The notes under the pieces are model-generated. The model was not told where the DNA came from, did no database searches, and saw only the letters and a program-made list of their open reading frames with translations. Of a DNA stretch of 64,000 nucleotides, positions 1-16,149 are shown piece after piece (position 1 is the stretch's first letter; every line of letters starts with the position of its first letter). The position numbers were made by a program, and so were the translations under genes. Source of the stretch: Kiritimatiellia bacterium (GTDB lineage: Bacteria > Verrucomicrobiota > Kiritimatiellia > RFP12 > UBA1067); contig JAKSOW010000001.1 of assembly GCA_024405395.1 (NCBI GenBank), positions 6,277-70,276 of the forward strand, in the 5' to 3' direction.

Positions 1-126
1 TCCTATAACTCTGTACCGCATCGGCAAAAAGCGCTGGATCCTGTATTTTGTCCCATGACGCATAGACGAAGATTGCGGCAATCCCAATTCGCAACACGCC
101 CTCAACAACAAGAACAAGCTTCTGCT

Positions 127-318
127 TCATGGCTCATCTCCTGTTTCGGACTCTCCGCTCTGGTGTGTTTCCGGTCCCGTCCACGGTATGCGTTGCTCTT
201 CGTAGACGCGCAGATTGTTGGCGATGCCCAAAAGCATCGCCAACACGATAATCGCAACCACAACAATCCAATTGAATCGCCACCCCCAAAAAGAAATTTC
301 CAGCCTGCTCATGCGCAT
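127..318 (-). CDS. possible small single-pass membrane protein (63 aa from internal ATG of track ORF 127..375)
   Basis: The ORF has a clear hydrophobic helix (WIVVVAIIVLAMLLGIANNL). The internal ATG at 318 avoids overlap with the protease gene stop at 333. No recognisable family and a weak RBS. Confidence 0.25.
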   Translation of the reverse strand: MRMSRLEISFWGWRFNWIVVVAIIVLAMLLGIANNLRVYEEQRIPWTGPETHQSGESETGDEP

Positions 319-332: not shown

Positions 333-1982
333 TCACTTCACCACCACGGGCCAGGACATTGCGGGTTTCTTGCATACGGCAACACCTCGACCAACGCCAT
401 CAACAACAAGCCCATTCACCGTAAATTTGTACTTCGCAAGTTTGGTGCGGCCATTATTCGTCTCTAGTGCATAAATTGTGAAAGTGCCCTTGAATATTCC
501 CGTCTTGGCCGCGAACGAAAGCTTCACACCCGCATTGTTCTCAGCTTCTGGATCATACTGAAGCTCCATCTCCTGGGTTTCGCGATTCTTTGCGTATTTC
601 ACCTTACCGGCCTTGGGGAAGGTCCACTTGGCGCCCGCGACATCAAAGGCCGTTCCGTCTGGCGTCAGGCTAGACAACCAATCAAATCCCTCAGAAGAAG
701 ATGCGTCAACGGAAAGGATCGCCGTACCGTTTTCCAATCCTCCGACAATTGCCTTCTTGACGGAATAACCTTCCGTGTGCAAACCATCGCTTTCAAGCAC
801 ATATCCCTGTGCCGGATCATAGTCCACAACAATCGCCACATCGTTCACTGGCGCCTTGAACGAGAGCAGGCCAGAGATTCGATTCCCCTTCGGAGTGAAA
901 GACTTGGCCTTGGCGGCAACCTTCTTGCCATTGGGCAGAATGATGGATCCGGACACCTTGACTTCATTCTTCTTCTGGTTGTATTTCCCAAGCTTCAGCT
1001 GTACAATTCCCGCAACTTCATCACCCGCATCAATGAGAGCGCCCGAAACGGTCACAGCCTTGGTGTAGGCTGTCGTCACGTCAGGAATCGGCGCAGGCGT
1101 GGGATCGTCCTTGGGATCCTGCGGATCTTTGGGGTCAACCACAGGATCTTTCGGCTTAACACTCTTGCGAAACGCCGCAACAATCGCAAAATTGTCCTTG
1201 ACGGTCTTGGCGTTGTTGTGATTGGCGTCACCCATCGGCACACCCTCGAAATCAATGTCCGGATTGGAGAAATAGGGGATCGTCTGCCAAATTTCAGAGC
1301 TTCCGGGTTTTGGCGTATAGGCAAGCAATGTCGCATAGTTGCCGCTTGACGTCGACAGATAGAATGCCGAGGAATAGGCATCATGGCAGGGGCCATCTGT
1401 CCCATCACCATCTCCATATGTGGAAACATCCGCATGACCCGCCCCCAAGAGATGCCCTATCTCATGCGGGACGACATAGCCATCCTCATGGGCAGCAGCC
1501 TCAACACTTGCGATACAGTAGGCATACGTCGAATATAGACTGGGGCTGGGCCACCCCGCATCAAACTCCCAACCAATACCTGCAGCCCCAGCGGCAATCC
1601 GCGTAAGCACGCAAACCACATCAGCACCCACTTTTTCACGGTACTGATGAACCTTATCCCAGTCATACCCATCTCGGACATGACCTTTTCCTGTATTGTC
1701 GCACACCACATCCGTCAGCATCGAAACGACGTCGCCCGTACCCGAGGACGGCACCAGCAATTCGCCTACCGAACGAAAATCACCTGCAGAAGAGATTCCA
1801 GAATTCGCCATGACGCGGTTGAGCTTCTCTACCGAACTGGCCGTAAGCTCCGAAGGCGACACGCCAGCATCACTTAGCCAATCCTGAGCTGATTTGTCGT
1901 ATACAAACAATACGTCAATTGTTGCGGCCATGGTTATGCCTGTTGCCATCAGGATCCATGCCGCCATTATCATTTTCTTCAT
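333..1982 (-). CDS. secreted zinc metalloprotease, metzincin-type (HEIGHLLGAGH = HExxHxxGxxH) with C-terminal Lys-rich Ig-like (He_PIG-like) modules
   Basis: The track ORF is 333..2015. The likely start is Met12 (MKKMIMAAWILMATGITMAA signal peptide), which overlaps the stop of the upstream gene as ATGA. The HEIGHLLGAGH zinc-binding motif is present. The C-terminus repeats KLSFAAKTGIFKGTFTIY / KLAKYKFTVNG motifs shared with neighbouring genes. Confidence 0.8.
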   Translation of the reverse strand: MKKMIMAAWILMATGITMAATIDVLFVYDKSAQDWLSDAGVSPSELTASSVEKLNRVMANSGISSAGDFRSVGELLVPSSGTGDVVSMLTDVVCDNTGKGHVRDGYDWDKVHQYREKVGADVVCVLTRIAAGAAGIGWEFDAGWPSPSLYSTYAYCIASVEAAAHEDGYVVPHEIGHLLGAGHADVSTYGDGDGTDGPCHDAYSSAFYLSTSSGNYATLLAYTPKPGSSEIWQTIPYFSNPDIDFEGVPMGDANHNNAKTVKDNFAIVAAFRKSVKPKDPVVDPKDPQDPKDDPTPAPIPDVTTAYTKAVTVSGALIDAGDEVAGIVQLKLGKYNQKKNEVKVSGSIILPNGKKVAAKAKSFTPKGNRISGLLSFKAPVNDVAIVVDYDPAQGYVLESDGLHTEGYSVKKAIVGGLENGTAILSVDASSSEGFDWLSSLTPDGTAFDVAGAKWTFPKAGKVKYAKNRETQEMELQYDPEAENNAGVKLSFAAKTGIFKGTFTIYALETNNGRTKLAKYKFTVNGLVVDGVGRGVAVCKKPAMSWPVVVK

Positions 1983-2011
1983 GTCTTTATCCTTTCTTTC
2001 CCTGCTTGTGA

Positions 2012-5000
2012 TCATTTTGCAAACATGTTAAACGGAACCGTAGAAGTCATTCGCTTCCCATTCACTTCTGTCTTGTAGCTGAAATAGCCGCTCGCAAAAG
2101 GCCGTTCTGCAAACTCTCCTGGAAAACTCTCTGCTATACACCCGCAGTCGATCCATCCAGGCGTCAATACTCCGCTAAAGTTCCCTTTGACTTCCTCTTC
2201 TCCAAAGTTAAATGTGGCTTTCCCAGAAACCAAACCTGAAGATGAATTTATCCGGCAAATTGCATCGGGGACTTCTTGACCCATGATTGAACAAACTACG
2301 GATTTCAAATCAAAAAGTCCAAGCCACGATTCAAGGGTAGTACGCTTTGCATAATATATGCCATAGCAGTCCAAGTCGGATGTAAATGCATCAAACTCAC
2401 CCACATGCCGCCATCGTGCGGCTACTCCTCTCACTGGACGAACAACCCGAGCAGTGGTCTCGTCTGCATAGTACTTTTCTCCGTTAGCATGAATTCGCAA
2501 TAAAGCCGAAAGAGAATCTCTCCTTTCCGCATGCAGAATCGGCAAGATTGCGTATTCCGAATCCTCTGGATCAATTGCCAACATTGATTTCGCGCTAAAT
2601 CTCGTACCTGAAGGAAGCGACCCCTTCAACCTAACAGTGCCAGTCTTCGAAACCGAAATCATTGCATATCCGGAACCTGTGAAATTACCGCCTGACACAT
2701 TTTCCACTCCAAATGCCATCGTGTAGTAACCAGCAAACGACCTCAGCTCTCCCATTGCCGAAGATCCAGAGGCACCACCAAACTCAACGCTCAAAACACC
2801 ACTGGCAGATAAGATCAACTTGAGGCTATGTTTGGGGGAAATGAGTTGCGCCGACGCCTCTCCTGAATCAGTATTCATGTATGACCAATAACCACTGAAG
2901 AACTTTGCTTGACTCGATAATTCAACAACCTTGGCCGAAAGTTTACCCGATTTGCTTTGTTTTAGGGTTACCATTCCCACCACATCCGAAGTTCCGTCAC
3001 CTGATGCCTTCACAAGAGGCACCGTCCACAAGCCGCCAACGCCAACAAATTGATTAAACTCACGTGGATCCATGATAGTTACCGTAACCGCCACAACGCC
3101 CGAAGGAATATTGGCATTGCCAATCTTTCTCGTCACCTCATACGAGAAATCAAATATTCCCTTTTTCTTTGCCTGGCCACGCAAACACACGGCTCCCGTC
3201 TGCTCATCAACGTAAAGCCTAAGCCCATTTGGCAATTGCCCCGATTTCTTCTTTACCGTAACCCGAGAGCAACCGTCAACCTCAACAGTTTCTAAAATGC
3301 ACTTCGTTTGGAATCCAACGTACGCGGAGGCCTCCTCATTACCGCTCCCTGGGACAAATTCACAGCTCACCTCCGCTGCATAACAAGAGGAGCCTCCCGC
3401 CACACGAGCAGGCATAGTTCCAGTCAATTTCAATACCGGTCGTAGTGATTGTGCATGTGATTTTCTAACTGCAAATTCCAGGGAATTAGTTCCACAGGCC
3501 ACCACAACTCCGTCTAAGACCAGAGATATCATCACGTCATGCGTGGAAGACACCGACACCGAGAAACTACCTGTTGAGAATCCCCGCAGAATAAACGCTT
3601 CAGCAGCATCACAGATTTGGAAATCAACTTGGGCTCGTCCCCCCGCTACCGACAGCTCCCGTCTAGTTGTGGAGACATAATCAGAAGACTCATCAGCACG
3701 ATTAGCCAATTTCAGAAGATCATCAAGCCGGGCGATGTTTTCCTCTGGATCATAGTAGCGAACATCAGAACCTATTTCACCATTACGGTCTCGCCATGTT
3801 GAGCAACGACCAACAACACGTCCCTTTCCGTCAATCAACAACAGCGTTGGTGTGCTGAGACGAGTCGCAGATGTTTCTGGTGCCTTCCACTCAGAAACTG
3901 AATTTCTGACACTTCGTTCGTGGGCGGCTAACACCAAAGGATCATCAGCATGCAACCCATGGCGAGACAAATATGCAGCACCACTAACCATCTTTCTTTC
4001 ATTCCCTGTATGGATGTGCTCCAAACCCGCGGCATAGGAAAGAAGATGCCCTGCATCTGCGTAAGTGTCGCTCTCTGAGAATGCCTGATCAAACAACACC
4101 AACTGTACCCGATTGTCCTCAAGCCAATCTCGGAATAGATCCGACGCAAAAAGTGATTGTTCCATCCCTTTACAATAGGGACACCATAAGACTCCTGAAT
4201 AAATCGCCAGGATTGCTTTAGCTTTACCCTCGACGACCTTACGACACGCAAGATCATAATCAAGTGTCCAATCCGAATACCTCAACTCCTCTATTGTGCT
4301 TTCCCCCACAAAATATGGATTTGTTGGCGAATTCACCTGGGCATCAACGCAATGCACAAATGAAGAAGAGACCACATCCCCCTTAGAGTCAATAAGAGAC
4401 AGCTCTATGCTCTTTCCTGTGGGAAACTCACATCCCAGAAACTTTTCAAGCGAGAGCGATACGATGGCATTCGTCTGTCCCATTGCCCAATGAATCGCAT
4501 TTGTAACTGGGGGCAGAACATTTCCAGGCCATGCAGCAACCAACAGATTATCGTCGGCAACACCTGGAAGACGCTTCAACGGAATATCAACAAACGACGT
4601 ATTCGACTCTATCTCAAGGCGATCACCCTCTCCGTCTGAGCATTGGAAACCAGCAACTGTACGATTTGTGGTGTAGGACCCGCAGAGTTTCTGAATGCTC
4701 TGTTCCAATTCTATCGCCAACAATTCCAACATTTCTGGATCATGCTCCGCAAGCGCGGAAAGAGACATCGCGGGGTCACGCGGCACAAGCATGCGTCCAG
4801 ATCTTCCAACAAAGCTCTCAGCCAAAGTCTCAACCCCATTCTTTGGCCACCATACACAGATGAACGGGAAACTGGTGAGCCAATTTCCTACAGATTTCGT
4901 GAATCCGGCACTACGAGCGAAATCACAGGCGCCCGTCCCCTCATTTACTTCAATATCCGCGCCAGAGGTACCTTGCACATAACAATAGACATAATCTGAA

Positions 5001-5260
5001 TGCTTCGTTTGCCAAGTGCGAAACGACTCGAGATTGACTGCCGTCTCAAGCTTTTCACACTCGCCACAAGAGGAATTAGCCCAAAACAACACCAGTGGAG
5101 CCTTAAGACTCTGTGCCAGGTTGGTAGCCGCGGTGAACGACTCAAGCCAAACGCCAGTCCTAGTTTCGTTCGAAACCTGGACTGGCGAATCAGCCTGCGC
5201 ATCCAGCGCCACCAAGGCGACAGTCACTGACAGTATCAGCGTGCCGATTCTTGAATGCAA
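2012..5260 (-). CDS. large secreted protein with two thioredoxin-fold CxxC domains (FWANSSCGECEKL and LWCPYCKGMEQ) plus beta-rich/Ig-like regions
   Basis: The track ORF is 2012..5419. Its first 53 codons overlap the upstream gene in another frame and contain no ATG. A TTG at 5260 immediately precedes a good signal peptide (HSRIGTLILSVTVALVALDAQA), so the start is uncertain. There are two CxxC thioredoxin-like motifs, paralogous to the genes at 6640 and 10192. Confidence 0.7.
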   Translation of the reverse strand: MHSRIGTLILSVTVALVALDAQADSPVQVSNETRTGVWLESFTAATNLAQSLKAPLVLFWANSSCGECEKLETAVNLESFRTWQTKHSDYVYCYVQGTSGADIEVNEGTGACDFARSAGFTKSVGNWLTSFPFICVWWPKNGVETLAESFVGRSGRMLVPRDPAMSLSALAEHDPEMLELLAIELEQSIQKLCGSYTTNRTVAGFQCSDGEGDRLEIESNTSFVDIPLKRLPGVADDNLLVAAWPGNVLPPVTNAIHWAMGQTNAIVSLSLEKFLGCEFPTGKSIELSLIDSKGDVVSSSFVHCVDAQVNSPTNPYFVGESTIEELRYSDWTLDYDLACRKVVEGKAKAILAIYSGVLWCPYCKGMEQSLFASDLFRDWLEDNRVQLVLFDQAFSESDTYADAGHLLSYAAGLEHIHTGNERKMVSGAAYLSRHGLHADDPLVLAAHERSVRNSVSEWKAPETSATRLSTPTLLLIDGKGRVVGRCSTWRDRNGEIGSDVRYYDPEENIARLDDLLKLANRADESSDYVSTTRRELSVAGGRAQVDFQICDAAEAFILRGFSTGSFSVSVSSTHDVMISLVLDGVVVACGTNSLEFAVRKSHAQSLRPVLKLTGTMPARVAGGSSCYAAEVSCEFVPGSGNEEASAYVGFQTKCILETVEVDGCSRVTVKKKSGQLPNGLRLYVDEQTGAVCLRGQAKKKGIFDFSYEVTRKIGNANIPSGVVAVTVTIMDPREFNQFVGVGGLWTVPLVKASGDGTSDVVGMVTLKQSKSGKLSAKVVELSSQAKFFSGYWSYMNTDSGEASAQLISPKHSLKLILSASGVLSVEFGGASGSSAMGELRSFAGYYTMAFGVENVSGGNFTGSGYAMISVSKTGTVRLKGSLPSGTRFSAKSMLAIDPEDSEYAILPILHAERRDSLSALLRIHANGEKYYADETTARVVRPVRGVAARWRHVGEFDAFTSDLDCYGIYYAKRTTLESWLGLFDLKSVVCSIMGQEVPDAICRINSSSGLVSGKATFNFGEEEVKGNFSGVLTPGWIDCGCIAESFPGEFAERPFASGYFSYKTEVNGKRMTSTVPFNMFAK

Positions 5261-5265
5261 TACCG

Positions 5266-6048
5266 TCAATCCATCACAGCCTTGACATACGCCGGGAAGG
5301 TATACGCTTCCGTGATTTTGGTTGCCTTCTGCAACTTGGCGGATATTTTCTTGTTGTACTTGATCTTCCAAGTTCCGAATGCCGAAGACCCTTGATTCAG
5401 CGAGCAAGTCTCCCCACACTCCAGACAGATAGGCCAGCCAGGTGCCGTAGCAGTGACGGCCTCCGTTCCCTCAATCTTCTCACACCAGTTGCAAGTCCCT
5501 GAAGTGGCTTTAGTGGTCACTACCGCACCCGGCAACATCCATCCGGCGAAGCTACCGCTGACAGGTGAAATGATTGAAGAAAGGAGCGTGCATGTATTCT
5601 TATCCTTGAGCACATTGTCCTTCAGAGACCCAAATCCTGATCCAACAAGATAGAATGTACCATCTTCTGAACTCAGAATCCATGTCAGTTCACATTTGGC
5701 GGCGCTTTTGTCAATACGATTGGCAATTGGCCACTCAAGCTTGACGTTCAAAGGTTTCTGACTGGTCACATTCCAGAAGAAGTAACCAAAAGCATTGGTG
5801 CTGCTCGTATAGGGCTCACCTTTGATCAACGTATCGCAGTCACATCCCCAGATCACACCCTTGATTGTGACAGATCCCTGTTTACGATACAACGTACTCT
5901 GATCAGTACGCATATCGCAAGCAACCATCTTGGGAGTTCCCGACTGCGTAACCGTAGTCTTAACCTTAATGTCTACTTCGTAGAACTGAGCATCTGCAGA
6001 AGCTGCTCCACAAAGCAGGAGCGCAAACAACATTACGATTGTCTTCAT
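5266..6048 (-). CDS. secreted Cys-rich protein (paralogue of 13779..14657), unknown function
   Basis: It has a signal peptide (MKTIVMLFALLLCGAASADA) and about 12 Cys. The C-terminal motif AFGTWKIKYNKKISAKL...AYTFPAYVKAV is shared with the 13779 gene (AYGTWKLKYSKKIANGTKGVAAYMPAYAK). Confidence 0.75.
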   Translation of the reverse strand: MKTIVMLFALLLCGAASADAQFYEVDIKVKTTVTQSGTPKMVACDMRTDQSTLYRKQGSVTIKGVIWGCDCDTLIKGEPYTSSTNAFGYFFWNVTSQKPLNVKLEWPIANRIDKSAAKCELTWILSSEDGTFYLVGSGFGSLKDNVLKDKNTCTLLSSIISPVSGSFAGWMLPGAVVTTKATSGTCNWCEKIEGTEAVTATAPGWPICLECGETCSLNQGSSAFGTWKIKYNKKISAKLQKATKITEAYTFPAYVKAVMD

Positions 6049-6078
6049 TGTCTTACATCCTTTTTCAATTTTACTAGC

Positions 6079-6612
6079 TTAATCAATGGAGAACTCGGAT
6101 GTCCCAAGTTTGCTGGAGGAAGCTGTACCATACCCCTCGCTGCCGTCAAACGTACCACTGATTTTGACCGTGTACTTTTTGAGCTTCATCTTGGTGACAC
6201 CCTTCTTGGTTTCATATTCCTGCACACCATAGACCTTGAAGGATCCCTTGACTGTTCCCTTCTTGCGGTTGTAGGAAAGCTTAAGACCGGCATAATTAGA
6301 GCTTTTGTCCGAATCCTTGAGCACCAACTCGTAATCCCCATCAACCTTTTTCACTTTGACAGAAAGGGCCTTATCGGTTTTCAACTTCTTGCCTGTGAAA
6401 TAGACAGGCTCGCCATCCGGGAAAAGATCAGACTGAATTTCGATTTCATCATCCGAAATATCAAATCCATCATCCAGTGTGAATGTGAATTCGGAATCCT
6501 CATAACTCTCATCATCTTTGTCCTTATTTTTGGCAAAAGCCGAAGAGATCGGCGCAAGCACCAATCCTAACGCCAAAACACCAATTGCTGTCTTTACCCA
6601 TTTCCTGTTCAT
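6079..6612 (-). CDS. small secreted protein with acidic linker and two Lys-rich Ig-like (He_PIG-like) modules
   Basis: It has a signal peptide (MNRKWVKTAIGVLALGLVLAPISSAFA). The motifs AGLKLSYNRKKGTVKGSFKVYG and KLKKYTVKISG are clearly homologous to the C-terminus of the protease gene (333..1982). Confidence 0.7.
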   Translation of the reverse strand: MNRKWVKTAIGVLALGLVLAPISSAFAKNKDKDDESYEDSEFTFTLDDGFDISDDEIEIQSDLFPDGEPVYFTGKKLKTDKALSVKVKKVDGDYELVLKDSDKSSNYAGLKLSYNRKKGTVKGSFKVYGVQEYETKKGVTKMKLKKYTVKISGTFDGSEGYGTASSSKLGTSEFSID

Positions 6613-6639
6613 GATCAGTTCTCCTTTTTTTGTAAGAAA

Positions 6640-7719
6640 TCAATCTTCAGCCCTTTTGGCTTCTACCACCAATTGAAACTCGCGAACTACCTTGGTTGCC
6701 GCCACATCTCTCCCTTCAGCGGTCACGGTAATATTATAACATCCTTTTCGCCAAAGTGTACCAGAAAAAACACCTTCTTCTGAATCCAGCGAAAGTCCGA
6801 ATGGCATACCCTCTGCGCTGAATTTCATCGGCCGCGTTGCCTCTTCAACTTCTAACCGGAACTTGAATTTCTTCCCTACCTTCGCAATGATCGGTTGTTC
6901 TGGAACCGAAAATACCGGCGGCCTACAAGCAGATACATTCCTGAAATTGGCTGTATAGGTTCCCTCAGTCATACCAGAGTCAATGACTAGCTTACGAGCA
7001 TAACCTACACACCTTCCATTAGGATCCATCCATCCCCAAAACACGCTACCAGAATCATCGGCAATTGCCGTGATTACAACTGTACCACGTTCATCCGCAA
7101 GCTCCCCAGAGACTGGATCCATCTCAATTTTTCCACTCCCTCCTGTTTGAGTGAATTTGAAATACTTTGAGTCAGGACTATGCAATATCTCTTTGGGATT
7201 GGATAATTTTGCCGTATAATCAATCAAAATCTTGTCCAGAGCGGAAATCAATTCCATCTGAAGAAATTTATGTCGAATTCCAGGCATCGTTCCACGACGA
7301 CCAGAGAAAGTCCTTTTTACCTCTGTCCCGTCTTCTTTCTTCCAATATACGCAAACTATCGGTATACCAGTTACCTCCTTGAACCCCTCTCGTTGAAAAG
7401 CTTCTGTTTGCTTGAACTGAGGATTCTTGTCATTTATATGTACCATAAAAATCTTACGGTCATCTTGCCACATCTTGAAATCCGTACTATTCATGGATTT
7501 GTTCAAGCGATAACAGAAACTACATTCAGTTCCAGCACTGATAACTAGAATCGGCTTATGAGCTGATTTCGCAACCGCTAGTGCATTAGTGAAATTATCG
7601 CTCCATACACCTGGCGTAACTTCATGTACGATAGGTATTTTGGCGCTTACTTCATCCCGTCCATGACACAAGGCTGTTACTAATAAAAAAATGAATACCA
7701 CGAGCTTACTCATCTTCAT
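6640..7719 (-). CDS. secreted thioredoxin-fold protein (CSFC active-site-like motif) with C-terminal putative-Ig (cadherin-like He_PIG) domain
   Basis: The track ORF is 6640..7752. The likely start is Met12 (MKMSKLVVFIFLLVTALCHG), overlapping the upstream stop by 1 nt. The thioredoxin-like motif is ILVISAGTECSFCYRLNKSM. The C-terminal FSAEGMPFGLSLDSEEGVFSGTLW is the classic putative-Ig motif. Confidence 0.8.
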   Translation of the reverse strand: MKMSKLVVFIFLLVTALCHGRDEVSAKIPIVHEVTPGVWSDNFTNALAVAKSAHKPILVISAGTECSFCYRLNKSMNSTDFKMWQDDRKIFMVHINDKNPQFKQTEAFQREGFKEVTGIPIVCVYWKKEDGTEVKRTFSGRRGTMPGIRHKFLQMELISALDKILIDYTAKLSNPKEILHSPDSKYFKFTQTGGSGKIEMDPVSGELADERGTVVITAIADDSGSVFWGWMDPNGRCVGYARKLVIDSGMTEGTYTANFRNVSACRPPVFSVPEQPIIAKVGKKFKFRLEVEEATRPMKFSAEGMPFGLSLDSEEGVFSGTLWRKGCYNITVTAEGRDVAATKVVREFQLVVEAKRAED

Positions 7720-9551
7720 TAATTCCCTTCTTTCGTAACCAAATCTAACCAATTCGGTATGTAGAGTTCTGCCCCTGGAACCTGTTCAACCCAAGAAGGT
7801 GGCAAATCATAATCAGAAGACAACCGCCCTGCCAGACGACCAAGAATAACCCGCACCTCCATTTTCTTCTGTAAAGACTCATCTATTTTTTTCCATGAGA
7901 ATGGAGGAGAAAGGAAAATCAGTTTTTCAGGGATGCAGAGACCATGATCCTGACGGTTAAACGTTTCAAGGTATTCAGCACCTCTCCATCCAGCAAGTAC
8001 TAACGTTCGTGTCTTATCTGGCAAAGCCGAAAGTTTCCGCACGAACGCAATTGCTGGGGCATTAGTATGGGACTGGAAAAACTGTCGCATCTCCTTGCCT
8101 TGATAAATCTGATATCCGCCATCAAGAACTGCGTCATCGCCTACAATCCACACTTTGGGATCTTCTCCGTTAAGCAAAACGTGATCTGGGAATCCCTTTA
8201 TGGATACCAACTGTCTGCAATTCCTTCCCCATATACCTACCACTACAACGGCACCAAGAGAAATAACCACAGCCATACATACAGCCACCAAAATCACCCG
8301 CCGTCCAAAAGGTCTAAAATCTTTGAACCCAGAAACAAGTGAAAATATCGGCAACACCCAAAGAAGTGGCTCCTCCAACTCATGTGTGAAACAGGCTGAT
8401 ACACCAAAAGCCACAAAGACCGCAAACGGCAAAGATTTCTTGTCGCGAAACGCCCACACCGCAAACAGGAACATGAAAAACAGCCAAGCAAACACATAGC
8501 CAACACGCTCCATACAACCCATCTCTACAAGCCATGTCAAATGGCTATTCTGCAGCTCAGACACCGCCAACGGCGTATCAAAGGACTGATACCAGTCAAC
8601 ATAGGCACGACCCCCATTACCATAGCCCCAACCTGTGGGAGCATCCGCCATCATTCTCGGTACAGCAGCCCACATTGTTCGCCGATCGGTGCGGGGGTCT
8701 TGGGCAAGAAAACCGCTGGTAAACCTAGTTCCACCAAACTTAAATGCAATGCCACCAAGGGCAACCAGCAGCAACAACGCTACCAGAATTCTGCGGAACG
8801 AAAATAAATCCTTGAATTCCCTAAAATGTGGTACAATAAGGGAAACAATACCCAAAACGAATCCGAGAAGACATCCCCGCGACTGCGTAAGGAACAAGAA
8901 GACCAATGACGCCAAGAAAGGGATGACGGCAACCATCCCGAGAATTAACCGACGACCATGAAACAACACCAATGCCACGGATAGGAACATCACCGACAAC
9001 ATCATAAAGATGGCTGCCGTCTTGTTTGGATTGATGAATTCCCCAAAAGGAATCCGGAACCGACCTGATTCTTTCCAGATGTCTACAGAAGTGACATCAT
9101 CCAACATTCCTCTTTGTTTCTGCTCCCAAAGCTTAGGTATGGCTTCATCCGACTGTACAGGCTTGATGCGCTTAACAACCATCTGCTCCCGATCGAAGGT
9201 CATCTTGCGCAACGTTCCATTATAAAACTCAAATTCCGTCTGTCCCCCAGTAAAGTCATCACGCGTACGAACGGTTGTCCGCCCATATTCAGAATAACCT
9301 TCCCACGGATCTTGGGCGAGTAAACGGGAAGGATTCTCCCGATCACGATACAAATAGCGAACCGTTTGGTCGGGTTGGGTCAATCGGCAAACCTCATAAT
9401 TTATCGGGACGAAAGTGGATTCAACTACATTAGTACCCCATTTAGTTGGGTCAGTTCGAAACCCATAGTAGGCGAATGACACCCATGACTGCAACAGAAC
9501 TATTGCAATCATAAAAATACGACGAATTGACCATGACTTAAACATATTCAC
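7719..9551 (-). CDS. polytopic membrane protein of the O-antigen ligase / Wzy_C family with sizeable N- and C-terminal soluble domains
   Basis: About 10 hydrophobic helices occupy the central 250 residues. FLFLTQSRGCLLGFVLGIV resembles the Wzy_C/WaaL signature (TxSRGA). Soluble domains of about 180 aa (N-terminal) and about 170 aa (C-terminal) flank the helices. The start codon sits 2 nt after the upstream stop. Confidence 0.6.
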   Translation of the reverse strand: MNMFKSWSIRRIFMIAIVLLQSWVSFAYYGFRTDPTKWGTNVVESTFVPINYEVCRLTQPDQTVRYLYRDRENPSRLLAQDPWEGYSEYGRTTVRTRDDFTGGQTEFEFYNGTLRKMTFDREQMVVKRIKPVQSDEAIPKLWEQKQRGMLDDVTSVDIWKESGRFRIPFGEFINPNKTAAIFMMLSVMFLSVALVLFHGRRLILGMVAVIPFLASLVFLFLTQSRGCLLGFVLGIVSLIVPHFREFKDLFSFRRILVALLLLVALGGIAFKFGGTRFTSGFLAQDPRTDRRTMWAAVPRMMADAPTGWGYGNGGRAYVDWYQSFDTPLAVSELQNSHLTWLVEMGCMERVGYVFAWLFFMFLFAVWAFRDKKSLPFAVFVAFGVSACFTHELEEPLLWVLPIFSLVSGFKDFRPFGRRVILVAVCMAVVISLGAVVVVGIWGRNCRQLVSIKGFPDHVLLNGEDPKVWIVGDDAVLDGGYQIYQGKEMRQFFQSHTNAPAIAFVRKLSALPDKTRTLVLAGWRGAEYLETFNRQDHGLCIPEKLIFLSPPFSWKKIDESLQKKMEVRVILGRLAGRLSSDYDLPPSWVEQVPGAELYIPNWLDLVTKEGN

Positions 9552-9553
9552 GA

Positions 9554-10195
9554 TTATTCGTCATCCTCTTCTTCTTGATTTTCCTCAAGCCATTTCTGAG
9601 CGGTGGCAACATTTTTCCAATCATCACCCGTCACGTATTCATAAGCTTCTTTCGCCGCCGCACGCGCAACACCATTACTGCTGGCAATAAGATGAACGAT
9701 GATATCAATAGACAAAGTAGGACGCAGATCGTTCAGTTGAAATGAAATTGATTCCATAACTTCACGATCACGAACCAACATCATGGTCTCCTCAATGAGT
9801 ACACCCTTTTCATGTTCATCCTCAATATCATTAATTGCCGAATCCCATTGATCCTGTGCCTCTGATCTAACGTCTTCATCGCGGTCAAGCAAAAACGGCA
9901 TCAACGCCCGTACAGATTTTTTTCCAAACCAGCCAATGGATTCAACACAACGCAAGCGAACTACTGCATTTTTCGAATTCTTGAGCTTTTCTACATAAGA
10001 CAATGCCTCCTGAAAATCTTCCTTCTCTACAGCATTCTCAAGATCAGAAACCTGCTTCTCTTCGCTAACCGTACATTCTGATGTCTCTACAACATTCTTT
10101 TGCATTTCCTTATCGGGTTCAGACTTGCCGCAACCGCTAAGTAGACAAACAACAACAGCAATACCGACTATATTCTTCATTTCTATCACCTTCAT
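9554..10195 (-). CDS. HEAT-repeat lipoprotein (PBS-lyase HEAT-like), paralogue of 11688..12614
   Basis: The track ORF extends to 10342. The real start at Met50 gives an ATGA overlap with the upstream stop, verified in the sequence at 10192-10195. Lipobox LLSGCG is present. HEAT motif VRLRCVESIGWFGKKSVRALMPFLLDRDEDVRSEAQDQW. The C-terminal tail is acidic. Confidence 0.75.
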   Translation of the reverse strand: MKVIEMKNIVGIAVVVCLLSGCGKSEPDKEMQKNVVETSECTVSEEKQVSDLENAVEKEDFQEALSYVEKLKNSKNAVVRLRCVESIGWFGKKSVRALMPFLLDRDEDVRSEAQDQWDSAINDIEDEHEKGVLIEETMMLVRDREVMESISFQLNDLRPTLSIDIIVHLIASSNGVARAAAKEAYEYVTGDDWKNVATAQKWLEENQEEEDDE

Positions 10196-11685
10196 GGCAA
10201 TGAGGCCAGAACTGTAACGTTGCCTTGACCCTGAATTTTTATTGTTCCTGTGATTTTGCCAGAATTCAAATCCAGACTTAACAAACCGATGACCACATTT
10301 TTCCCAGATTTCCTGAAAACAGGCAACCAGGTCGTTACGCAATCGGTACTCTCAACCAACACACTCTTGGTATTGATGCGAAGTCTATTTGGAAACGTTC
10401 CCTTTATTGAAACTACACCTGTCTTCGCTGCCGCCTTCTTCATTACCAACTGTAGTTCTGTTTCATTTTCAAGGATAATCTTACGGTCCATAACATAAAG
10501 ACTCGCAGGAGACTTTGCTGTCCAAAGTGTATGAGAGAAACAAATTCTACGCGACACACCATCTGTAGATATGAAATTTCCTATCAGCTGCCCTTCGGAT
10601 GTAACAGCTAACAAAAATGAACATCCCACTCCCGTTCCTGAAATTTCCAATATACCATCCGATGACAAACTTTTCCACCCTTTAGAAACCGCCTTCAACT
10701 TGTTATCGACACCATCATACTGGATTTTTGCCTGTCCTTTCTCCGAGAGTGTTAAGGATATTATTCCTTGCATCTCGCCATCCTCTGACAATATAAATCC
10801 ACTTGTCTTCACCGACTTTGTGATCGTGAAGGCAGAACAGACTTTAGAAACTGGAACCACAGTAATCGTTAGGGTAAATGTCTGACTGCCCTTCTCTATT
10901 CCTACATCGCGTTTTTCAGCCAGAATCCAAGAACTGGTAAACGTACCTGCTTTAGTTGGATTTCCTTTAAACAAAACCCGTTTAGAGACAGAATCATAGG
11001 ATACCTTTATTCCCGAAGGGAGTCTTCCAGAAGCCTTCTTTACCTGCACCATCCCACCTACCGTATTGGTTACTTGAAAGTATTCCTCAAAAGGAATATG
11101 CTGAACTGACTCAACAGTTGCATTCCGAAGCGCAAACGCCGGCATTGGCTGATCCATAGGTGCCGATGGTCTAGGAGAATCTAAAGTAGAGGAAAATGCA
11201 AAGCCCGAATCAACCAAAACCTTCTCAACTGAACTAGTCAACTGCAACGCTAGGGGCCCAAGTTTCACCGGCATGTATCCATCGCGACCAACAAAAGCTC
11301 TCTCAATTATCGTTCCATCTGTTTTTGGCCAATAGATGCAAAACAACGGCAACTCATTAATCCACGGATTAATAGATCGTATGAATTTAAGTCCTGCTTT
11401 TGCATCTGAATCGCCATCATGACATACGCTCATTATTATGCGGTGGTCATAAAGCCATTCCTGAAAATCAGCACTATCTAGTGCTGACTTCATCTGATTG
11501 CACATTGGACATGAGCTACGTGCCCACAATAACAACATAGGAGTGCATGTCTCGTTAGCATAGCTAAGACCCTTGGAAAACCCCGCATTCCACTCACCTA
11601 AACATATCTCTCCCCTAGAAAAAGAAAAAGCCCATACACTGAAAACTAGAATGATATTAAAAGACAGTACCAAAATTTTTTTCAT
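10192..11685 (-). CDS. secreted thioredoxin-fold protein (CPMC motif) with putative-Ig domains
   Basis: Signal peptide MKKILVLSFNIILVFSVWAFS is present. The thioredoxin-like motif is LLLWARSSCPMCNQMKSAL. The He_PIG motif is RLPSGIKVSYDSVSKRVLFKGNPTKAGTFTSS. The C-terminal AAKTGVVSIKGTFPNRL matches the module shared with the protease and the small Ig protein. Confidence 0.8.
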   Translation of the reverse strand: MKKILVLSFNIILVFSVWAFSFSRGEICLGEWNAGFSKGLSYANETCTPMLLLWARSSCPMCNQMKSALDSADFQEWLYDHRIIMSVCHDGDSDAKAGLKFIRSINPWINELPLFCIYWPKTDGTIIERAFVGRDGYMPVKLGPLALQLTSSVEKVLVDSGFAFSSTLDSPRPSAPMDQPMPAFALRNATVESVQHIPFEEYFQVTNTVGGMVQVKKASGRLPSGIKVSYDSVSKRVLFKGNPTKAGTFTSSWILAEKRDVGIEKGSQTFTLTITVVPVSKVCSAFTITKSVKTSGFILSEDGEMQGIISLTLSEKGQAKIQYDGVDNKLKAVSKGWKSLSSDGILEISGTGVGCSFLLAVTSEGQLIGNFISTDGVSRRICFSHTLWTAKSPASLYVMDRKIILENETELQLVMKKAAAKTGVVSIKGTFPNRLRINTKSVLVESTDCVTTWLPVFRKSGKNVVIGLLSLDLNSGKITGTIKIQGQGNVTVLASLP

Positions 11686-11687
11686 TG

Positions 11688-12614
11688 CTACTCTCCTTCA
11701 GAATTTTGCCCTTCTTCTTTTGAAATCGTTTTATCAAAATTTTTTCTCTCTGGTATATCGTACTCTGTGTCGTTTATGATTTTCATACCAGAAATATCTA
11801 TTTCTGGGTCAAATACCTCTGGGTGAAGAGATGCTCGATAGACTGGTATGTCATCAGATTCTTCTGACAAATCAATGTTCTCATTGACCCAGGCTTGTGC
11901 AGCCTCAAACGTCGTATACTCCTCCCCTGTTAGAAAAGAATAAGACTCAAGTGCTACATCCACAACATCTGGATTCTCACTATTAATCAAGGCTACCACT
12001 GACTCAATCGCCGTAAAAGTTGATAGTTCATTCAAATTAAAAGCGATATCTTCCAACATATCACGGTCTTTAATCACACCCATTGTAGCTTCAATAATTG
12101 TAGCCTTAACACGCTCATCTTCGACTTGACCTAAAGCAGATAACCAAAGATCTTGTGCAGCATCACGAACATTTTCATCCTGATCAACAAGAAAAGGCGT
12201 CAACTCAGGAAGGGCTTCCTCATTAAACCAACCAAGTGCCTCAATGGCTCTAAGGCGAACAATCTCATTTGTGGAATTTCCCATTAGTTTTGCAAGTTCT
12301 TGAACTGTAGTGAAATCCTCGGCATTAAGAGCTTTATCAACTTCATCAAACAACCGTCGATCCTGTGGCGAAACCTCATCAGGAATTTGAGATCGATCAA
12401 CTTTTCGTTTTTCCCGCCTTAATGTATTAACTTTAATGCTCGTATCCCTTATCTCAACTAGTTGCTTAACATTTGCCGGTTTGCGCCTTGATATACGCAT
12501 TCCAGTTCCAGATCTATTAGTTTGCCCCTCAGTCTCTTTATTGGTTGAAATATTGAAAATGAAAATGGCTATCGTGAATAAAATTACTGAAACTAAAAAA
12601 ATCTTAATTTTCAT
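11688..12614 (-). CDS. HEAT-repeat protein with N-terminal membrane anchor, paralogue of 9554..10195
   Basis: The track ORF extends to 12659. Met16 (MKIKIFLVSVILFTIAIFIF) starts 2 nt after the upstream stop, verified in the sequence. HEAT motif VRLRAIEALGWFNEEALPELTPFLVDQDENVRDAAQDLW is nearly identical in pattern to the gene at 9554. The C-terminal tail is acidic. Confidence 0.75.
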   Translation of the reverse strand: MKIKIFLVSVILFTIAIFIFNISTNKETEGQTNRSGTGMRISRRKPANVKQLVEIRDTSIKVNTLRREKRKVDRSQIPDEVSPQDRRLFDEVDKALNAEDFTTVQELAKLMGNSTNEIVRLRAIEALGWFNEEALPELTPFLVDQDENVRDAAQDLWLSALGQVEDERVKATIIEATMGVIKDRDMLEDIAFNLNELSTFTAIESVVALINSENPDVVDVALESYSFLTGEEYTTFEAAQAWVNENIDLSEESDDIPVYRASLHPEVFDPEIDISGMKIINDTEYDIPERKNFDKTISKEEGQNSEGE

Positions 12615-12615
12615 T

Positions 12616-13692
12616 TTACTTCTTCCTTTTACGCGTTGGGAAAACGATACCTTCTCCATAAGGATATTTGATAATCGCTTTCTTACGCAAATCGCGAATA
12701 GTATTCCCGATAACCTCTTCCTGTCGTTCCTTAATCAATTCACGTTTTATGAATTCAGGATCCTCGTCAAATATTATGGCTGTTCGCCAAACAATGCGGG
12801 CAAGATGGCGAGCAAATACTGTTCCATCACCATTCACATCTTCTTTATCGCCCAAAAATTTTACTATCTCTATCCCATCATCGGTTGTCATAACATCTGT
12901 AATCTCACCAGGCTTTAAACATACTATGCTCTCCCAATAAACTGGGGCTTCCATTGAGAAGTCATCAGCCGTGCAAAAACCCAAGTCACCTCCTGGATTT
13001 TTTTCTTCATCCTGTGAAAAATCATCAGCCAGCTCAGAGAAATCTGCACCAGCCCTTGCCCTTGCCAAAACGTTAGTTGCTTCTGCATAAATGTGAATAT
13101 TTGTCTGCACCATACGCGCATTGTATGCAATCGTTTGCGCCACTTGATTTGAAATTGCTTCGGCAGATACCAGCATTTGAGTTGCCAATGCCGTCTTAAT
13201 GTAGTGCTGGCTCCATAAATCCAGCTCTAGCATCTCTTCAATCACATGACAATTAACACCTTTATCAAAGGAACAAAGTTGTTTGAAAGACATTCCTTTT
13301 TTACCATAGCTTAACGCATATTTTTCCTGAAGCTTCAACCTTTCTTCTTTTGTTGGCACAAAATTCATCCGTTTTGCTTCACTTGCCAACAATGCCATCG
13401 GAAAAAAGTTTTGATATTCTTTCTCCCGAAACCGCGTCTTTAGCATTTGAAACTTATGATCTGCTATAGTACCGACTTTCGCTTTGGCAAAACTCAATTT
13501 TGCCATAATTTGACCCTCATATTGTCCCTTGGTCAACTTTATACCATTGACTTCTACAAGCACCGAGTCAGAGTTGAGGCTACTATATGTTTCTCTCGTG
13601 CCTTTCGCACCATAAACATTGTTTATCCCGAAAGTAAGAAACAACAAAACTATACGAACAATTTTAAATGGAGTATAAGTTTTCATTTCCAC
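12616..13692 (-). CDS. periplasmic chaperone/peptidyl-prolyl isomerase, SurA-N-like domain plus PpiC (parvulin) domain
   Basis: A signal-peptide-like N-terminus is present. The parvulin motif region is FSELADDFSQDEEKNPGGDLGFCTADDFSMEAPVYWESIVCLKPGEITDVMTTDDGIEIVKFLG. Confidence 0.8.
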   Translation of the reverse strand: MEMKTYTPFKIVRIVLLFLTFGINNVYGAKGTRETYSSLNSDSVLVEVNGIKLTKGQYEGQIMAKLSFAKAKVGTIADHKFQMLKTRFREKEYQNFFPMALLASEAKRMNFVPTKEERLKLQEKYALSYGKKGMSFKQLCSFDKGVNCHVIEEMLELDLWSQHYIKTALATQMLVSAEAISNQVAQTIAYNARMVQTNIHIYAEATNVLARARAGADFSELADDFSQDEEKNPGGDLGFCTADDFSMEAPVYWESIVCLKPGEITDVMTTDDGIEIVKFLGDKEDVNGDGTVFARHLARIVWRTAIIFDEDPEFIKRELIKERQEEVIGNTIRDLRKKAIIKYPYGEGIVFPTRKRKK

Positions 13693-13778
13693 TGCTATCT
13701 CAAATGTAAAAAGCGGGAGGAAGCACTTTCATGCATCCACCCGCCTTGTCTCAATTATTCGCCCTTCGGCGAATAACC

Positions 13779-14657
13779 TTACTTAGCATACGCAGGCATA
13801 TAGGCAGCAACACCCTTAGTACCATTGGCAATCTTCTTGCTGTACTTCAGCTTCCACGTACCATACGCAGCAAGCAGTTCAGAACCAGCAGATTCGGTAA
13901 GATCGTCACAAACCGCACCGAAATCATCGCAGATACCAACAAGACCAGCCCAGTGATAGTCACACTCACGAATGGTAGGATCACCCGTCACCGAACCGGC
14001 AACACTACCAGAAACGTTCTTGACAACACCCTTCTTGACATCAAACGAACCAAGACCAGCGAGCTTAAGGTCGTAATCACTGAAATCAGCCGTTTCAGCA
14101 TTAAAACCACCTGCCCCATCCGAGACATTACGCCAAGCATAGTCAATCCAACCCATGTCACCATTCTCATCCTTGGCGTACACCTGCTCCTTACCAGCGA
14201 AGTCCCAGACCATGGAAACCTTGTTGGCCTTCTTCTCGTAACGATAAACCTCATCGCCAACAGCCGACTTGAAGTCATTAGCCTTGTATTTCTCAACAGT
14301 CTTACCGCCTTCGACAACAGTCTCCGTAGTGAGGTAATCACCAATCACGTGCTGGAAGCCCTTATCGGTACGCCAAATCACGTACTGGGCACCATCAAAA
14401 TCGCAAGCCGACTTGCAGTTCCAAATGATACCCTTCAGCGTACGCTTACCATTCTTGTAGTAGGAGACACACGTTTTCGTCTCACCCAAGCACGCACTAC
14501 CACCCTTGCACTTAAGGGTCTTGGGAGCGAGCGTCTTAAGCTTGATCGTAAGATCATAAGCCTGACAATCCGAACTCGGATCAATCGTGCAGAGGTCACC
14601 TGCAAAAACACCAATACCAGCAGCTGCAACAGCGGCAGCAATCATCAACTTCTTCAT
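13779..14657 (-). CDS. secreted Cys-rich protein (paralogue of 5266..6048), unknown function
   Basis: The track ORF extends to 14750. The start at Met32 (MKKLMIAAAVAAAGIGVFAG signal peptide) was verified in the sequence. About 16 Cys. The conserved C-terminus GTWKLKYSKKI...AYMPAYAK is shared with the 5266 gene. The overlapping plus-strand ORF 13731..14732 is low-complexity antisense. Confidence 0.75.
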   Translation of the reverse strand: MKKLMIAAAVAAAGIGVFAGDLCTIDPSSDCQAYDLTIKLKTLAPKTLKCKGGSACLGETKTCVSYYKNGKRTLKGIIWNCKSACDFDGAQYVIWRTDKGFQHVIGDYLTTETVVEGGKTVEKYKANDFKSAVGDEVYRYEKKANKVSMVWDFAGKEQVYAKDENGDMGWIDYAWRNVSDGAGGFNAETADFSDYDLKLAGLGSFDVKKGVVKNVSGSVAGSVTGDPTIRECDYHWAGLVGICDDFGAVCDDLTESAGSELLAAYGTWKLKYSKKIANGTKGVAAYMPAYAK

Positions 14658-15055
14658 TTTTTTTCCTTTTTTAACCGGGTAGAATCCCGTGCCTTTACGA
14701 CGGTCGATCGTTTCCCAGATGAAAACCGCTGAGATATTCGGCCGGGCCACACTAGTATACCCGTACTTTTTTACAGGAGCTACCCTGATCTCTCACGCTT
14801 CGGGGCTGCATTCAGTAGCCCAGCACGTAACAATCTTTCGACCATTACTCCTAGGGTACTGGACTAATCCAGCCACCCTTCCACGGGAGAAACGCGCATA
14901 TCATATCAAAAGTCGTTTTGCCTTGCAAGTGGGAAATCAATTTTTTTTTCATTTTCTTTGTCACAACGCCACCAGGTGGATTTGCCTTGTAAGACTATTT
15001 AATGAGCGCACCATACACAATGCAAATGCAAAACTCTCTTGTTCATAAACAGAAC

Positions 15056-15077
15056 AGCTCGTCGGTTGACGAGCTGC
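15056..15077 (-). terminator. perfect 9-bp hairpin (CAGCTCGTC-GGTT-GACGAGCTG) followed by a U-rich tract on the minus strand, downstream of the bS22-like gene
   Basis: The inverted repeat was read directly. The minus-strand flank UUCUGUUUAU is U-rich. Confidence 0.45.
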
Positions 15078-15119
15078 TTGTTGATTGATGCCTTGAAGCA
15101 TCTTATCCTATAATAAGGA

Positions 15120-15279: not shown

Positions 15280-16149
15280 TTAGAAGATGATCTTGTTGAG
15301 CGGCAGCTCAATGATGCCAGTAGCGCCCGCCGCGCTCAGAACCGGAATCAAATCGCGCACCTGCTTCTCCTCGACAACCGACTCCACCGCGAACCAGCCT
15401 GCGTCATTGAGCTTGTTCACCGTGGGCGCGTGCAACGCCGGAAGCGCCGCCACAATCTTATCGAGCTTCTTCTCAGGCGCGTTGAGCTTGATGAGCACGC
15501 GCTTCTGGGCTTCAAGCGCCGCCACAAGCAACATCTTGATCTGCTCGATCTTCGCACGCTTCGCCTTGTTGGCCCACGCCTTCTTGTTGGCGATGAGGCG
15601 CGTCGTCGACGTAAGGATCGTGTCGACGATGCGAAGGTTGTTCGCACGCAGCGACGAACCCGTCTCGGTAAGATCGACGATTGCGTCCACCAGCTCAGGC
15701 GCCTTCACTTCCGTGGCGCCCCAGCTGAATTCGACATCGGCCTTGACGCCGTTCTTCTTCAGATAACGCTTCACGATGCCCAGGGCTTCCGTGGAGATGC
15801 GCTTGCCCTGAAGATCCTTCACGCTCTTGATCTTGGAGTCGTTCGGAACCGCGAGAACCCAACGAACCGGATTGGACGTGGCCTTAGAATAGTTGAGCTC
15901 GCAGACGTCCTCGACGTCCGAACCATTTTCGTACACCCAGTCCCAACCGCAGATGCCCGCATCCAGGAGACCCATCTCAACATAGCGGCTCATTTCCTGC
16001 GGACGGAGCAGGCGGCACTTGATCTCCGCATCATCAATCGTGGGGAAATAGGAACGCGACGAGCAGGAAACATTAAACCCTGCGCGCTTGAAAAGCGCGA
16101 AGGTCGATTCCTGAAGGCTACCCTTCGGCAGACCAAGAACAATTGCCAT
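15280..16149 (-). CDS. hisG: ATP phosphoribosyltransferase, long form with C-terminal regulatory domain
   Basis: 289 aa with typical HisG-long conservation throughout. The antisense track ORF 15124..16347 is rejected. Confidence 0.95.

Follow-up and report, generated by a model that had tools for sequence, protein, structure and literature searches.

What do membrane-anchored HEAT-repeat proteins do when their genes are interleaved with genes for periplasmic folding factors? The question is raised by a locus of a Kiritimatiellia bacterium (GCA_024405395.1, contig JAKSOW010000001.1), of which forward-strand positions 6,277-70,276 were analyzed; this whole stretch of 64,000 nt is called the window below. 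Four co-directional open reading frames (ORFs) lie on its minus strand at 9554-10195, 10192-11685, 11688-12614 and 12616-13692 and encode, read from the last to the first, a parvulin-domain protein, the HEAT-repeat protein HEAT2, a thioredoxin-fold protein (TRX497) and a second HEAT-repeat protein (HEAT1). A first-pass annotation had read them as two tandemly duplicated, translationally coupled gene pairs, each encoding a 1:1 complex of a HEAT lipoprotein and a different folding catalyst. Its coordinates agree with the ORF list, while the paired organization had to be revised. We propose, with a probability of about 0.45, that the HEAT proteins are anchored periplasmic adaptors of an oxidative-folding and surface-assembly module that comprises the membrane protein MauE and several thioredoxin-like (TRX) proteins. 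On the best-supported reading, the operon as a whole matures secreted, cysteine-rich envelope proteins of this gut or rumen bacterium by folding, disulfide bonding and probably glycan-linked assembly.

Profile matches and a structural model identify HEAT1 and HEAT2 as HEAT-type alpha-solenoid repeat proteins. The Pfam family HEAT_2 matched HEAT2 with E 8.3e-10 and HEAT1 with E 1.5e-05 (25.6 bits, under the Pfam cut-off of 27.7), and at E <= 0.1 Pfam gave HEAT-type matches only, so that neither protein was assigned to YfgM/TPR_21. The AlphaFold2 (AF2) model of HEAT2 shows an 11-helix solenoid core with pLDDT > 90, for which Foldseek returned generic HEAT/ARM, TOG, importin-alpha and alphaRep matches at probabilities of 0.9-1.0; a profile of the family likewise matched alphaRep HEAT designs (E 2.8e-12). 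The two proteins are 37% identical over 164 amino acids (aa) (E 8e-41). The near-identical repeat noticed before in both of them (VRLR..GWF / FL.D.DE.VR..AQD.W) lies inside this alignment, and both carry the acidic C-terminal tail described earlier. Their anchors differ. With a lipobox defined as a signal peptide ending in [LVI][ASTVI][GAS]C, HEAT1 has the lipobox MKNIVGIAVVVCLLSGC (LLSGC), and its orthologues have VVGC, VGGC or AAGC. HEAT2 has none and instead carries a transmembrane (TM) helix at residues 3-22, so the earlier label of HEAT lipoprotein holds for HEAT1 only. Orthologues of HEAT2 are 46-59% identical to it, and its sequence is also present in the Kiritimatiellae metagenome-assembled genome GCA_024500515.1.

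The distribution of the family is narrow. When one genome per GTDB species was scanned, members were obtained only from three Kiritimatiellae, and a metagenome scan yielded 46 loci, mainly from rumen and gut samples. An exhaustive HMMER search of 1.84 billion cluster representatives recovered 149 HEAT-family proteins at E <= 1e-30 and 628 at E <= 1e-10, the representatives standing for clusters at 50% identity; these proteins are typically 240-300 aa long and cover the whole core. Members throughout the family carry a TM helix or a lipobox at the N-terminus, continue through a basic linker into a core of ~165 aa and end in an acidic tail, which in many of them is very long. In a rough neighbour-joining tree of the cores, subfamilies track genomic context (a type linked to Bac_transf, a type that follows Wzy_C genes and types that follow TRX genes), and HEAT1 and HEAT2 form separate deep clades. 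A recent tandem duplication of the HEAT pair was ruled out, the cores being ~28% identical over shared columns and each belonging to its own orthologous clade. Judged by these comparisons, HEAT1 and HEAT2 are paralogues that diverged long ago, and they belong to an uncharacterised family of helical-repeat proteins with membrane anchors that is confined to Kiritimatiellae; a literature search on Kiritimatiellae HEAT-repeat proteins found nothing. The locus contains no duplicated pair, because the HEAT gene alone is duplicated and its parvulin and TRX497 partners are unrelated to each other. Further TRX paralogues are encoded at 6640-7719 and 2012-5227, and neither is followed by a HEAT gene.

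The reported coupling was examined at the level of single junctions. An ATG at 10195 does overlap the TGA of TRX497, as described before; the start of HEAT1 is, however, likely at 10180, 11 nt past the TRX497 stop and in the same place as in the orthologues, which removes the overlap. This start is preferred because orthologues of HEAT1 begin at the second methionine (MRNL...), the public gene call for HEAT1 is 208 aa long and a Shine-Dalgarno-like AAGGTGA precedes the ATG. Between the parvulin stop and the HEAT2 start the gap measures 1 nt and not 2 nt. The spacing is thus tight indeed, but this is near-universal in the operon and not specific to the proposed pairs: almost all junctions are tight and come with Shine-Dalgarno-like runs, HEAT1 and the following Wzy_C-family gene being separated by 2 nt, the latter overlapping TRX370 by 1 nt, and a small ORF overlapping MauE by ATGA.

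All genes from 14657 to the left edge of the window are on the minus strand, and the four genes occupy the centre of a conserved operon that comprises at least 11 genes. It reads u323, two hairpins, parvulin, HEAT2, TRX497, HEAT1, Wzy_C, TRX370, lip177, u260, TRX1135, MP560, a 63-aa TM ORF and MauE (Table 1). Local hidden Markov models (HMMs) for the cluster components were run over all fetched loci, which are given here by L numbers. About 10 related metagenome contigs (L003-L010, L014 and L036) share the order of a nine-gene core, whose proteins are 46-80% identical, and the same set of components (two u260 genes, parvulin, TRX, Wzy_C, a protein with the C-terminal domain described below, and HEAT) recurs in a different order in L027, L041, L058 and L060-L064. 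No terminator-like hairpin beyond shuffle expectation was detected within 9554-13692; a sigma-70 promoter scan scored below shuffle expectation and was uninformative.

Table 1. Features of the HEAT-containing cluster, in window coordinates
Feature	Position	Strand	Description
MauE/DoxX-family membrane protein	2..130	-	First 43 codons; gene truncated at the edge of the window
Small single-TM protein, 63 aa	127..318	-	Conserved upstream of MauE; stop overlaps the MauE start (ATGA)
MP560	333..2015	-	Reprolysin/metzincin-like metalloprotease (HEIGHLLGAGH) with the C-terminal domain (CTD) at its end
TRX1135	2012..5227	-	Large, secreted; two thioredoxin-like CxxC domains (CGEC, CPYC) and immunoglobulin (Ig)/beta domains
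u260	5266..6048	-	Secreted, Cys-rich, all-beta; candidate cargo or structural subunit
lip177	6079..6612	-	Small secreted protein, nearly all of it the ~115-aa CTD
TRX370	6640..7719	-	Thioredoxin-like (CSFC), He_PIG Ig domain
Wzy_C-family protein	7719..9551	-	Polytopic membrane protein with extra periplasmic N- and C-terminal regions
HEAT1	9554..10180	-	Lipoprotein, HEAT core as in HEAT2, EENQEEEDDE tail; alternative ATG at 10195
TRX497	10192..11685	-	Secreted; thioredoxin-like (CPMC) N-domain, Ig-like and beta C-terminal domains
HEAT2	11688..12614	-	N-terminal TM anchor, basic linker, 11-helix HEAT solenoid, conserved acidic C-terminal extension
SurA/PrsA/PpiD-like parvulin protein (peptidyl-prolyl isomerase family, PPIase)	12616..13692	-	Periplasmic, chaperone-like, parvulin domain
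Intergenic double hairpin	13693..13778	-	86-nt spacer between the u323 stop and the parvulin start
u323	13779..14657	-	Secreted, Cys-rich, beta-rich; divergent paralogue of the u260 family

A link to disulfide formation is provided by MauE. MauE proteins can replace DsbB in E. coli, carry a CXC motif followed by FG and probably use quinone; fusions with thioredoxin-superfamily domains make up ~8% of the MauE entries (bioRxiv 10.64898/2026.03.05.709764). Since the window holds only the first 43 codons of the gene, the CXC-FG motif lies outside it and was read from orthologues: the fragment is 65% identical to the MauE of L003, which matches PF07291 (E 9.5e-26) and contains SCGCFG. The MauE of the operon is predicted to be a DsbB-like disulfide generator. 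MauE and the small ORF stand at the 3' end of the cluster in the window and in L003 and L007-L010, the orthologous loci that reach past the downstream end of the cluster, and in these loci polyprenyl synthetase, UbiE, UbiA and ETF genes, among them genes for quinone biosynthesis, follow MauE. The small ORF resembles a 63-aa ORF of L003 (tblastn E 2.6e-11), where the pair has the same 4-nt overlap, and its product may be a small partner subunit of MauE. In one HEAT-family representative, P0218, the two proteins are fused: behind a MauE domain (residues 8-136, E 1.6e-26) come a TM helix, the basic linker and then the complete HEAT core.

The thioredoxin fold proposed earlier for the product of 10192-11685 is weak by Pfam (thioredoxin E 0.028, below cut-off, with the Ig match likewise marginal). 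It is borne out by a profile of the TRX N-domains taken jointly, in which CxxC is invariant in 11 domains and which matched the PDB entries 2ju5 (E 2.4e-07) and 4fyb (2.2e-05) and S. aureus DsbA (7e-04); the solved structures matched are thiol-disulfide oxidoreductases and include a DsbC-like protein and DsbA. TRX370 was recognized by He_PIG (E 8.9e-08) and Thioredoxin_7 (E 7.4e-05). TRX497 and TRX370 are 28% identical (E 2e-27), and TRX1135 is paralogous to them. These proteins are thus predicted to be redox-active thioredoxin-fold thiol-disulfide oxidoreductases of the DsbA/DsbC/TlpA-like kind. In L003 the TRX497 orthologue (11001-12341) is shortened to 446 aa and followed by a gap of 152 nt, and in L005 (2735-4241) it is split into two overlapping ORFs, while the L004 copy is intact (494 aa); either assembly error or gene decay in some strains would account for these forms.

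The SurA/PpiC identity given before to the product of 12616-13692 is upheld for its parvulin fold (Rotamase_3 E 1.4e-12, Rotamase E 4.3e-10), while the SurA_N part is weak (SurA_N_3 E 2.5e-04, 21.3 bits, under the 27.2-bit cut-off). NCBIfam PRK00059 aligned with residues 41-342 (E 3.5e-14), far under the family cut-off. The N-terminal hydrophobic signal appears to be a cleavable signal peptide. The protein and its orthologues were aligned with E. coli Par10. The position of Par10 His84 is Glu in the window protein and in three window-type orthologues and Val in L023. At the position of His8 the window protein alone has His, and the remaining sequences of the alignment have Leu or Ile. Because the conserved active-site His pair is not retained, the protein is probably a PpiD/SurA-P1-type chaperone rather than an isomerase, which speaks against the folding catalyst assumed in the first-pass annotation.

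The candidate clients are encoded in the same operon. u323 is 25% identical to u260 (E 4e-09) and aligns with the u260 family, although it matched no Pfam or NCBIfam entry itself. For u260, 37 homologous clusters were found (37-80% identity), and relatives within the u260/u323 family are 50-80% identical to each other. The family has conserved cysteine motifs (CDC, WGCDC, CSWC, CxxC) and a conserved C-terminal FP.YVK.V.E. The AF2 model of u260 is confident (pLDDT 78) and all-beta, with unusually long beta hairpins, and had no meaningful fold match in a Foldseek search of the PDB (best TM-score about 0.2). u323 is likely a structural subunit or a substrate. The spacer that follows it folds with a minimum free energy of -41.9 kcal/mol (z -6.1; none of 200 shuffled sequences folded as well), and the second hairpin has a U-run behind it and resembles a terminator or attenuator that would separate u323 from the accessory genes. 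Hairpins stand in the equivalent position in L003, L007 and L008. The next start codon comes only ~20 nt after the U-run, so the genes past the hairpins may need read-through; such an arrangement would suit the gene of an abundant subunit placed ahead of accessory genes expressed at a lower level.

Two further components concern glycans and a shared C-terminal domain. The Wzy_C-family protein matched Wzy_C (PF04932) with E 4.4e-13 (49.7 bits, cut-off 31.7) and had no sequence relative in the PDB. It is a member of the O-antigen ligase / polymerase / O-oligosaccharyltransferase family, and its predicted activity is any of these three. The CTD, an unannotated C-terminal domain of ~115 aa, is encoded in the window at 6082-6456 (lip177) and 336-698 (MP560), which scored 138 and 136 bits, respectively, with the local CTD model. 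Its consensus reads ..LPDG..TG.KW..PKAGKVKY...NP.GLKLSY.AK.G.FKGSFKVY...KLK..T..VSGV..G.GYG.A. Carriers comprise small lipoproteins, metalloproteases, several TRX proteins, a C10 peptidase and a Laminin_G/Listeria-Bacteroides-repeat (List_Bact) protein, and CTD loci are L025, L037, L040-L042, L049, L051 and L058-L064. Among the 120 matches listed from 467 in the database, no name beyond 'hypothetical protein' and no relevant Pfam family occurred; no Pfam family covered the domain in those CTD-bearing proteins that were scanned, and a sequence search of the PDB was empty. A divergent CTD at the ends of TRX497, TRX370 and TRX1135 was considered and ruled out (full-sequence E 0.15-0.67 with the local HMM). 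The protease MP560 matched Reprolysin_3, _4 and _5 and Mep72 (E 3e-11). Apart from the parvulin and the protease, no cluster protein received an NCBIfam name.

If the HEAT proteins were partners of folding factors, their genes should be found next to such genes in other loci as well, and this expectation held in part. Six architectures (the window type, L012/46/47, L027, L041, L058 and L063) have a TRX (CxxC) gene as the immediate upstream neighbour of a HEAT gene, the upstream gene in L012/L046 being a homologue of TRX1135. In this RUG11875-type locus (L012 10747-11829, L046 and L047), the HEAT gene comes after a double-TRX gene and has a gene of the phage-integrase family as its immediate downstream neighbour. 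The parvulin gene precedes a HEAT gene directly in the window type and in L023, but in two more distant clusters it is followed by Wzy_C (L063) or by TRX (L064). Overall, the commonest gene upstream of HEAT is one that ends in a CTD, and the commonest gene downstream is Bac_transf, encoding a priming sugar transferase, at a distance of 1-8 nt in 17 loci; these loci run on into an ABC-2 exporter, GT8, GT4 and Lnt, and L062 into rmlCADB. Wzy_C adjoins HEAT in both orders (window, L058, L060-62). Many members of the family, for example in L011, L013, L020, L053 and L034/L039, are unlinked to folding-factor genes, a finding that the first-pass annotation itself had regarded as contrary to dedicated pairs.

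The adaptor reading draws on the operon structure, its synteny and the recurrence of its parts in shuffled order, on the invariant CxxC of the TRX proteins, on the match of their profile to solved oxidoreductases, on the presence of MauE, with quinone-biosynthesis genes behind it in relatives, on the fusion in P0218, and on the repeated TRX-HEAT adjacency. It is further supported by the confident solenoid core, the anchors and tails found family-wide, the subfamilies that track context, the cysteine pairs of u260 and the hairpins past u323. From these observations we infer contacts, a direction of electron flow, clients and a role for the Wzy_C-family protein as follows. MauE would make disulfides from quinone and hand them to TRX497, TRX370 and TRX1135, which would act like DsbA/DsbC, while the degenerate SurA/PpiD-like parvulin would serve as a holdase. 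u323 and u260 would be the likely clients or structural products, and the Wzy_C-family enzyme may, through ligation or O-glycosylation, tie their maturation to a glycan carried on a lipid. HEAT1, with its lipid anchor, and HEAT2, with its TM anchor, would tether soluble factors or clients beside MauE and Wzy_C and, in other loci, beside the priming sugar transferase, with separate HEAT subfamilies serving separate membrane-proximal partners.

Several points weigh against this proposal. The most frequent tight neighbour of HEAT genes, Bac_transf, belongs to envelope-glycan biosynthesis and not to protein folding, and several HEAT genes lie among housekeeping genes (UvrC, shikimate dehydrogenase, PurH, AMP-ligase). 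Adjacency to MauE is confined to the window-type operon, and the P0218 fusion is a single representative without a locus. The periplasmic location of HEAT2 is predicted from the positive-inside rule and from analogy with the lipoprotein HEAT1. Among solved structures, the best sequence match of the TRX domain is a protein of the DsbH type, which in Chlamydia is reductive, and for this reason redox transfer by the TRX proteins could run in either direction. Finally, the locus counts are not phylogenetically independent, since most loci come from closely related rumen populations.

How does the adaptor proposal compare with two dedicated 1:1 complexes, parvulin-HEAT2 and TRX497-HEAT1, whose stoichiometry would be kept by translational coupling? 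In every window-type orthologue the PPIase and HEAT2 genes are spaced by -4 to +5 nt, L023 also has a PPIase gene followed by HEAT, TRX precedes HEAT in the six architectures, and a precedent exists in PpiD-YfgM, an anchored parvulin chaperone with an anchored helical-repeat protein (PMC9643414). Against this stand the genes that follow the parvulin gene in L063 and L064, and the HEAT protein of L023, which falls into the Bac_transf-type clade. Only 2 nt separate HEAT1 from Wzy_C, as against 11 nt between TRX497 and the likely HEAT1 start, TRX370 and TRX1135 have no HEAT gene after them, and the numbers of HEAT and TRX genes per cluster are not 1:1. Tight coupling is moreover operon-wide, and HEAT genes are as tightly spaced with Wzy_C and Bac_transf. 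Anchored helical scaffolds near folding factors are plausible, while private pairs defined by gene order are unsupported, and we regard the two dedicated complexes as improbable.

The neighbours on the other side allow the HEAT proteins to be seen as accessory periplasmic subunits of glycan enzymes (Wzy_C, Bac_transf, exporters), for instance as a scaffold or an adaptor for chain length or ligation, comparable in function to the TPR scaffolds of exopolysaccharide systems, with the folding factors as passengers. This would explain the close junctions with Bac_transf in its 17 loci, the contact with Wzy_C in both orders, the surrounding rmlCADB, GT4, GT8, GT2, ABC-2 exporter, GDP-mannose dehydratase, cytidylyltransferase and LpxB/LpxI genes, and HEAT subfamilies that track glycan neighbours. 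Bac_transf enzymes, however, have their catalytic domain on the cytoplasmic side, while a periplasmic location is predicted for the HEAT domain; this reading leaves unexplained why HEAT is fused to MauE and why TRX genes adjoin it repeatedly; and Pfam gave generic HEAT matches only, with no homology to known co-polymerases or TPR scaffolds. A role of this kind is considered rather unlikely, though the strongest of the alternatives. Still less credit, to the point of being quite unlikely, is given to the idea that the HEAT proteins have no specific partner and are abundant lineage-specific envelope proteins or clients, placed by descent and by the clustering of envelope genes. A multi-copy family in many contexts, including the housekeeping genes named above, and the origin of most loci from related rumen populations would fit it. 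The same rare families nevertheless stand beside HEAT despite extensive rearrangement, junctions of 1-6 nt are kept across orthologues that are 46-59% identical, and a gene fusion joins HEAT to MauE. A far-reaching extension of the adaptor reading, unlikely in its entirety, is a lineage-specific pathway in which HEAT adaptors couple MauE, large TRX-Ig-CTD oxidoreductases, a dead-parvulin chaperone, Wzy_C and the priming transferase, the product being a disulfide-cross-linked, glycosylated surface layer of u260/u323 proteins with a novel fold.

The closest functional precedent is found in E. coli, where ppiD and yfgM are not adjacent and the parvulin domain of PpiD is catalytically inactive. 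The likeness lies in the combination of a SurA-like parvulin-domain chaperone with a small TM-anchored periplasmic helical-repeat protein (PMC9643414). The window parvulin likewise is without the conserved active-site His pair, but seems to have a cleavable signal peptide instead of a TM anchor, and YfgM is TPR-like whereas the proteins of the window are HEAT proteins with no TPR_21/YfgM match in Pfam. As to the redox branch, we know of no adaptor in DsbB/DsbA or MauE/MauD. The operon resembles the MauE-MauD and DsbB-DsbA systems (bioRxiv 10.64898/2026.03.05.709764) in that a CXC-FG MauE is encoded together with periplasmic CxxC proteins of the thioredoxin fold, quinone-biosynthesis genes adjoin in relatives and Cys-rich secreted proteins are plausible clients. 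In the window, however, the TRX partners are large and multidomain (TRX_7, Ig and beta/CTD), number three to four and are not small DsbA/MauD types, and their genes are interspersed with those of anchored HEAT proteins, of a chaperone and of a Wzy_C enzyme.

Looser analogies are given by three other systems. In cytochrome c maturation (CcmG/CcmH/CcmI), a membrane-anchored, client-binding TPR protein works with a thioredoxin-like periplasmic oxidoreductase; the window operon differs in having HEAT instead of TPR and in containing no Ccm genes, haem-handling proteins or CXXCH clients. Periplasmic TPR/Sel1 alpha-solenoid scaffolds occur in the glycan-assembly operons of AlgK, PelB, BcsC and PgaA, AlgK being a lipoprotein. 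These are not homologous to the HEAT family and belong to synthase-dependent systems with an outer-membrane porin as partner, whereas the partners here are Wzy_C and Bac_transf and no porin was seen. In the Type IX secretion system (T9SS) of Bacteroidota, cargo with a CTD is attached to anionic lipopolysaccharide (A-LPS). Common to that system and the Kiritimatiellae loci is a C-terminal domain of ~100 aa carried by secreted enzymes of various kinds, with WbaP-like and Wzy/WaaL-like genes in the vicinity. The CTD described here matched no Pfam family in the carriers that were scanned, and no T9SS genes were seen, so that T9SS-like sorting was considered and kept as a loose analogy only. The operon is a variant of known periplasmic maturation systems, built around three unannotated lineage-specific families.

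The surroundings of the cluster were also inspected. Between its start and hisG (15280-16149, Pfam) lies a bidirectional terminator-like hairpin of 11 bp (15053-15078), and a promoter-like site is found on the minus strand at 14928-14900. The cluster genes (window 333-14750) have a G+C content of 38-52% each, compared to 61% in the rest (16200-64000), whereas in relatives the difference is only ~5 points (L003 cluster 56%, flanks 61%); no tRNA or integrase was seen at the cluster borders within the window. Elsewhere, an ORF of 3509 aa on the plus strand (37854-48383) with PATR, Laminin_G_3 and beta-helix matches probably encodes a giant surface or autotransporter-like protein, and an ORF of 2015 aa (49537-55584), with an ABC1 match only near residue 1500, may be partly spurious in a stretch of high G+C.

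Taken together, the analysis defines three unannotated families, the HEAT-anchor family, the u260 family and the CTD. MauE, which was only recently put forward as the second most common disulfide generator of bacteria, has few known natural partners or clients. The operon could encode an entire MauE pathway in compact form, from an uncultured gut and rumen phylum, its putative parts being a generator, unusual TRX carriers, a chaperone, Cys-rich candidate clients and an anchored HEAT family. If the HEAT proteins are adaptors, they would represent a component that is absent from DsbB/DsbA-type systems and would link oxidative folding to glycan assembly; in the extended pathway, if true, dedicated adaptor subunits would be found in an oxidative-folding system for the first time.

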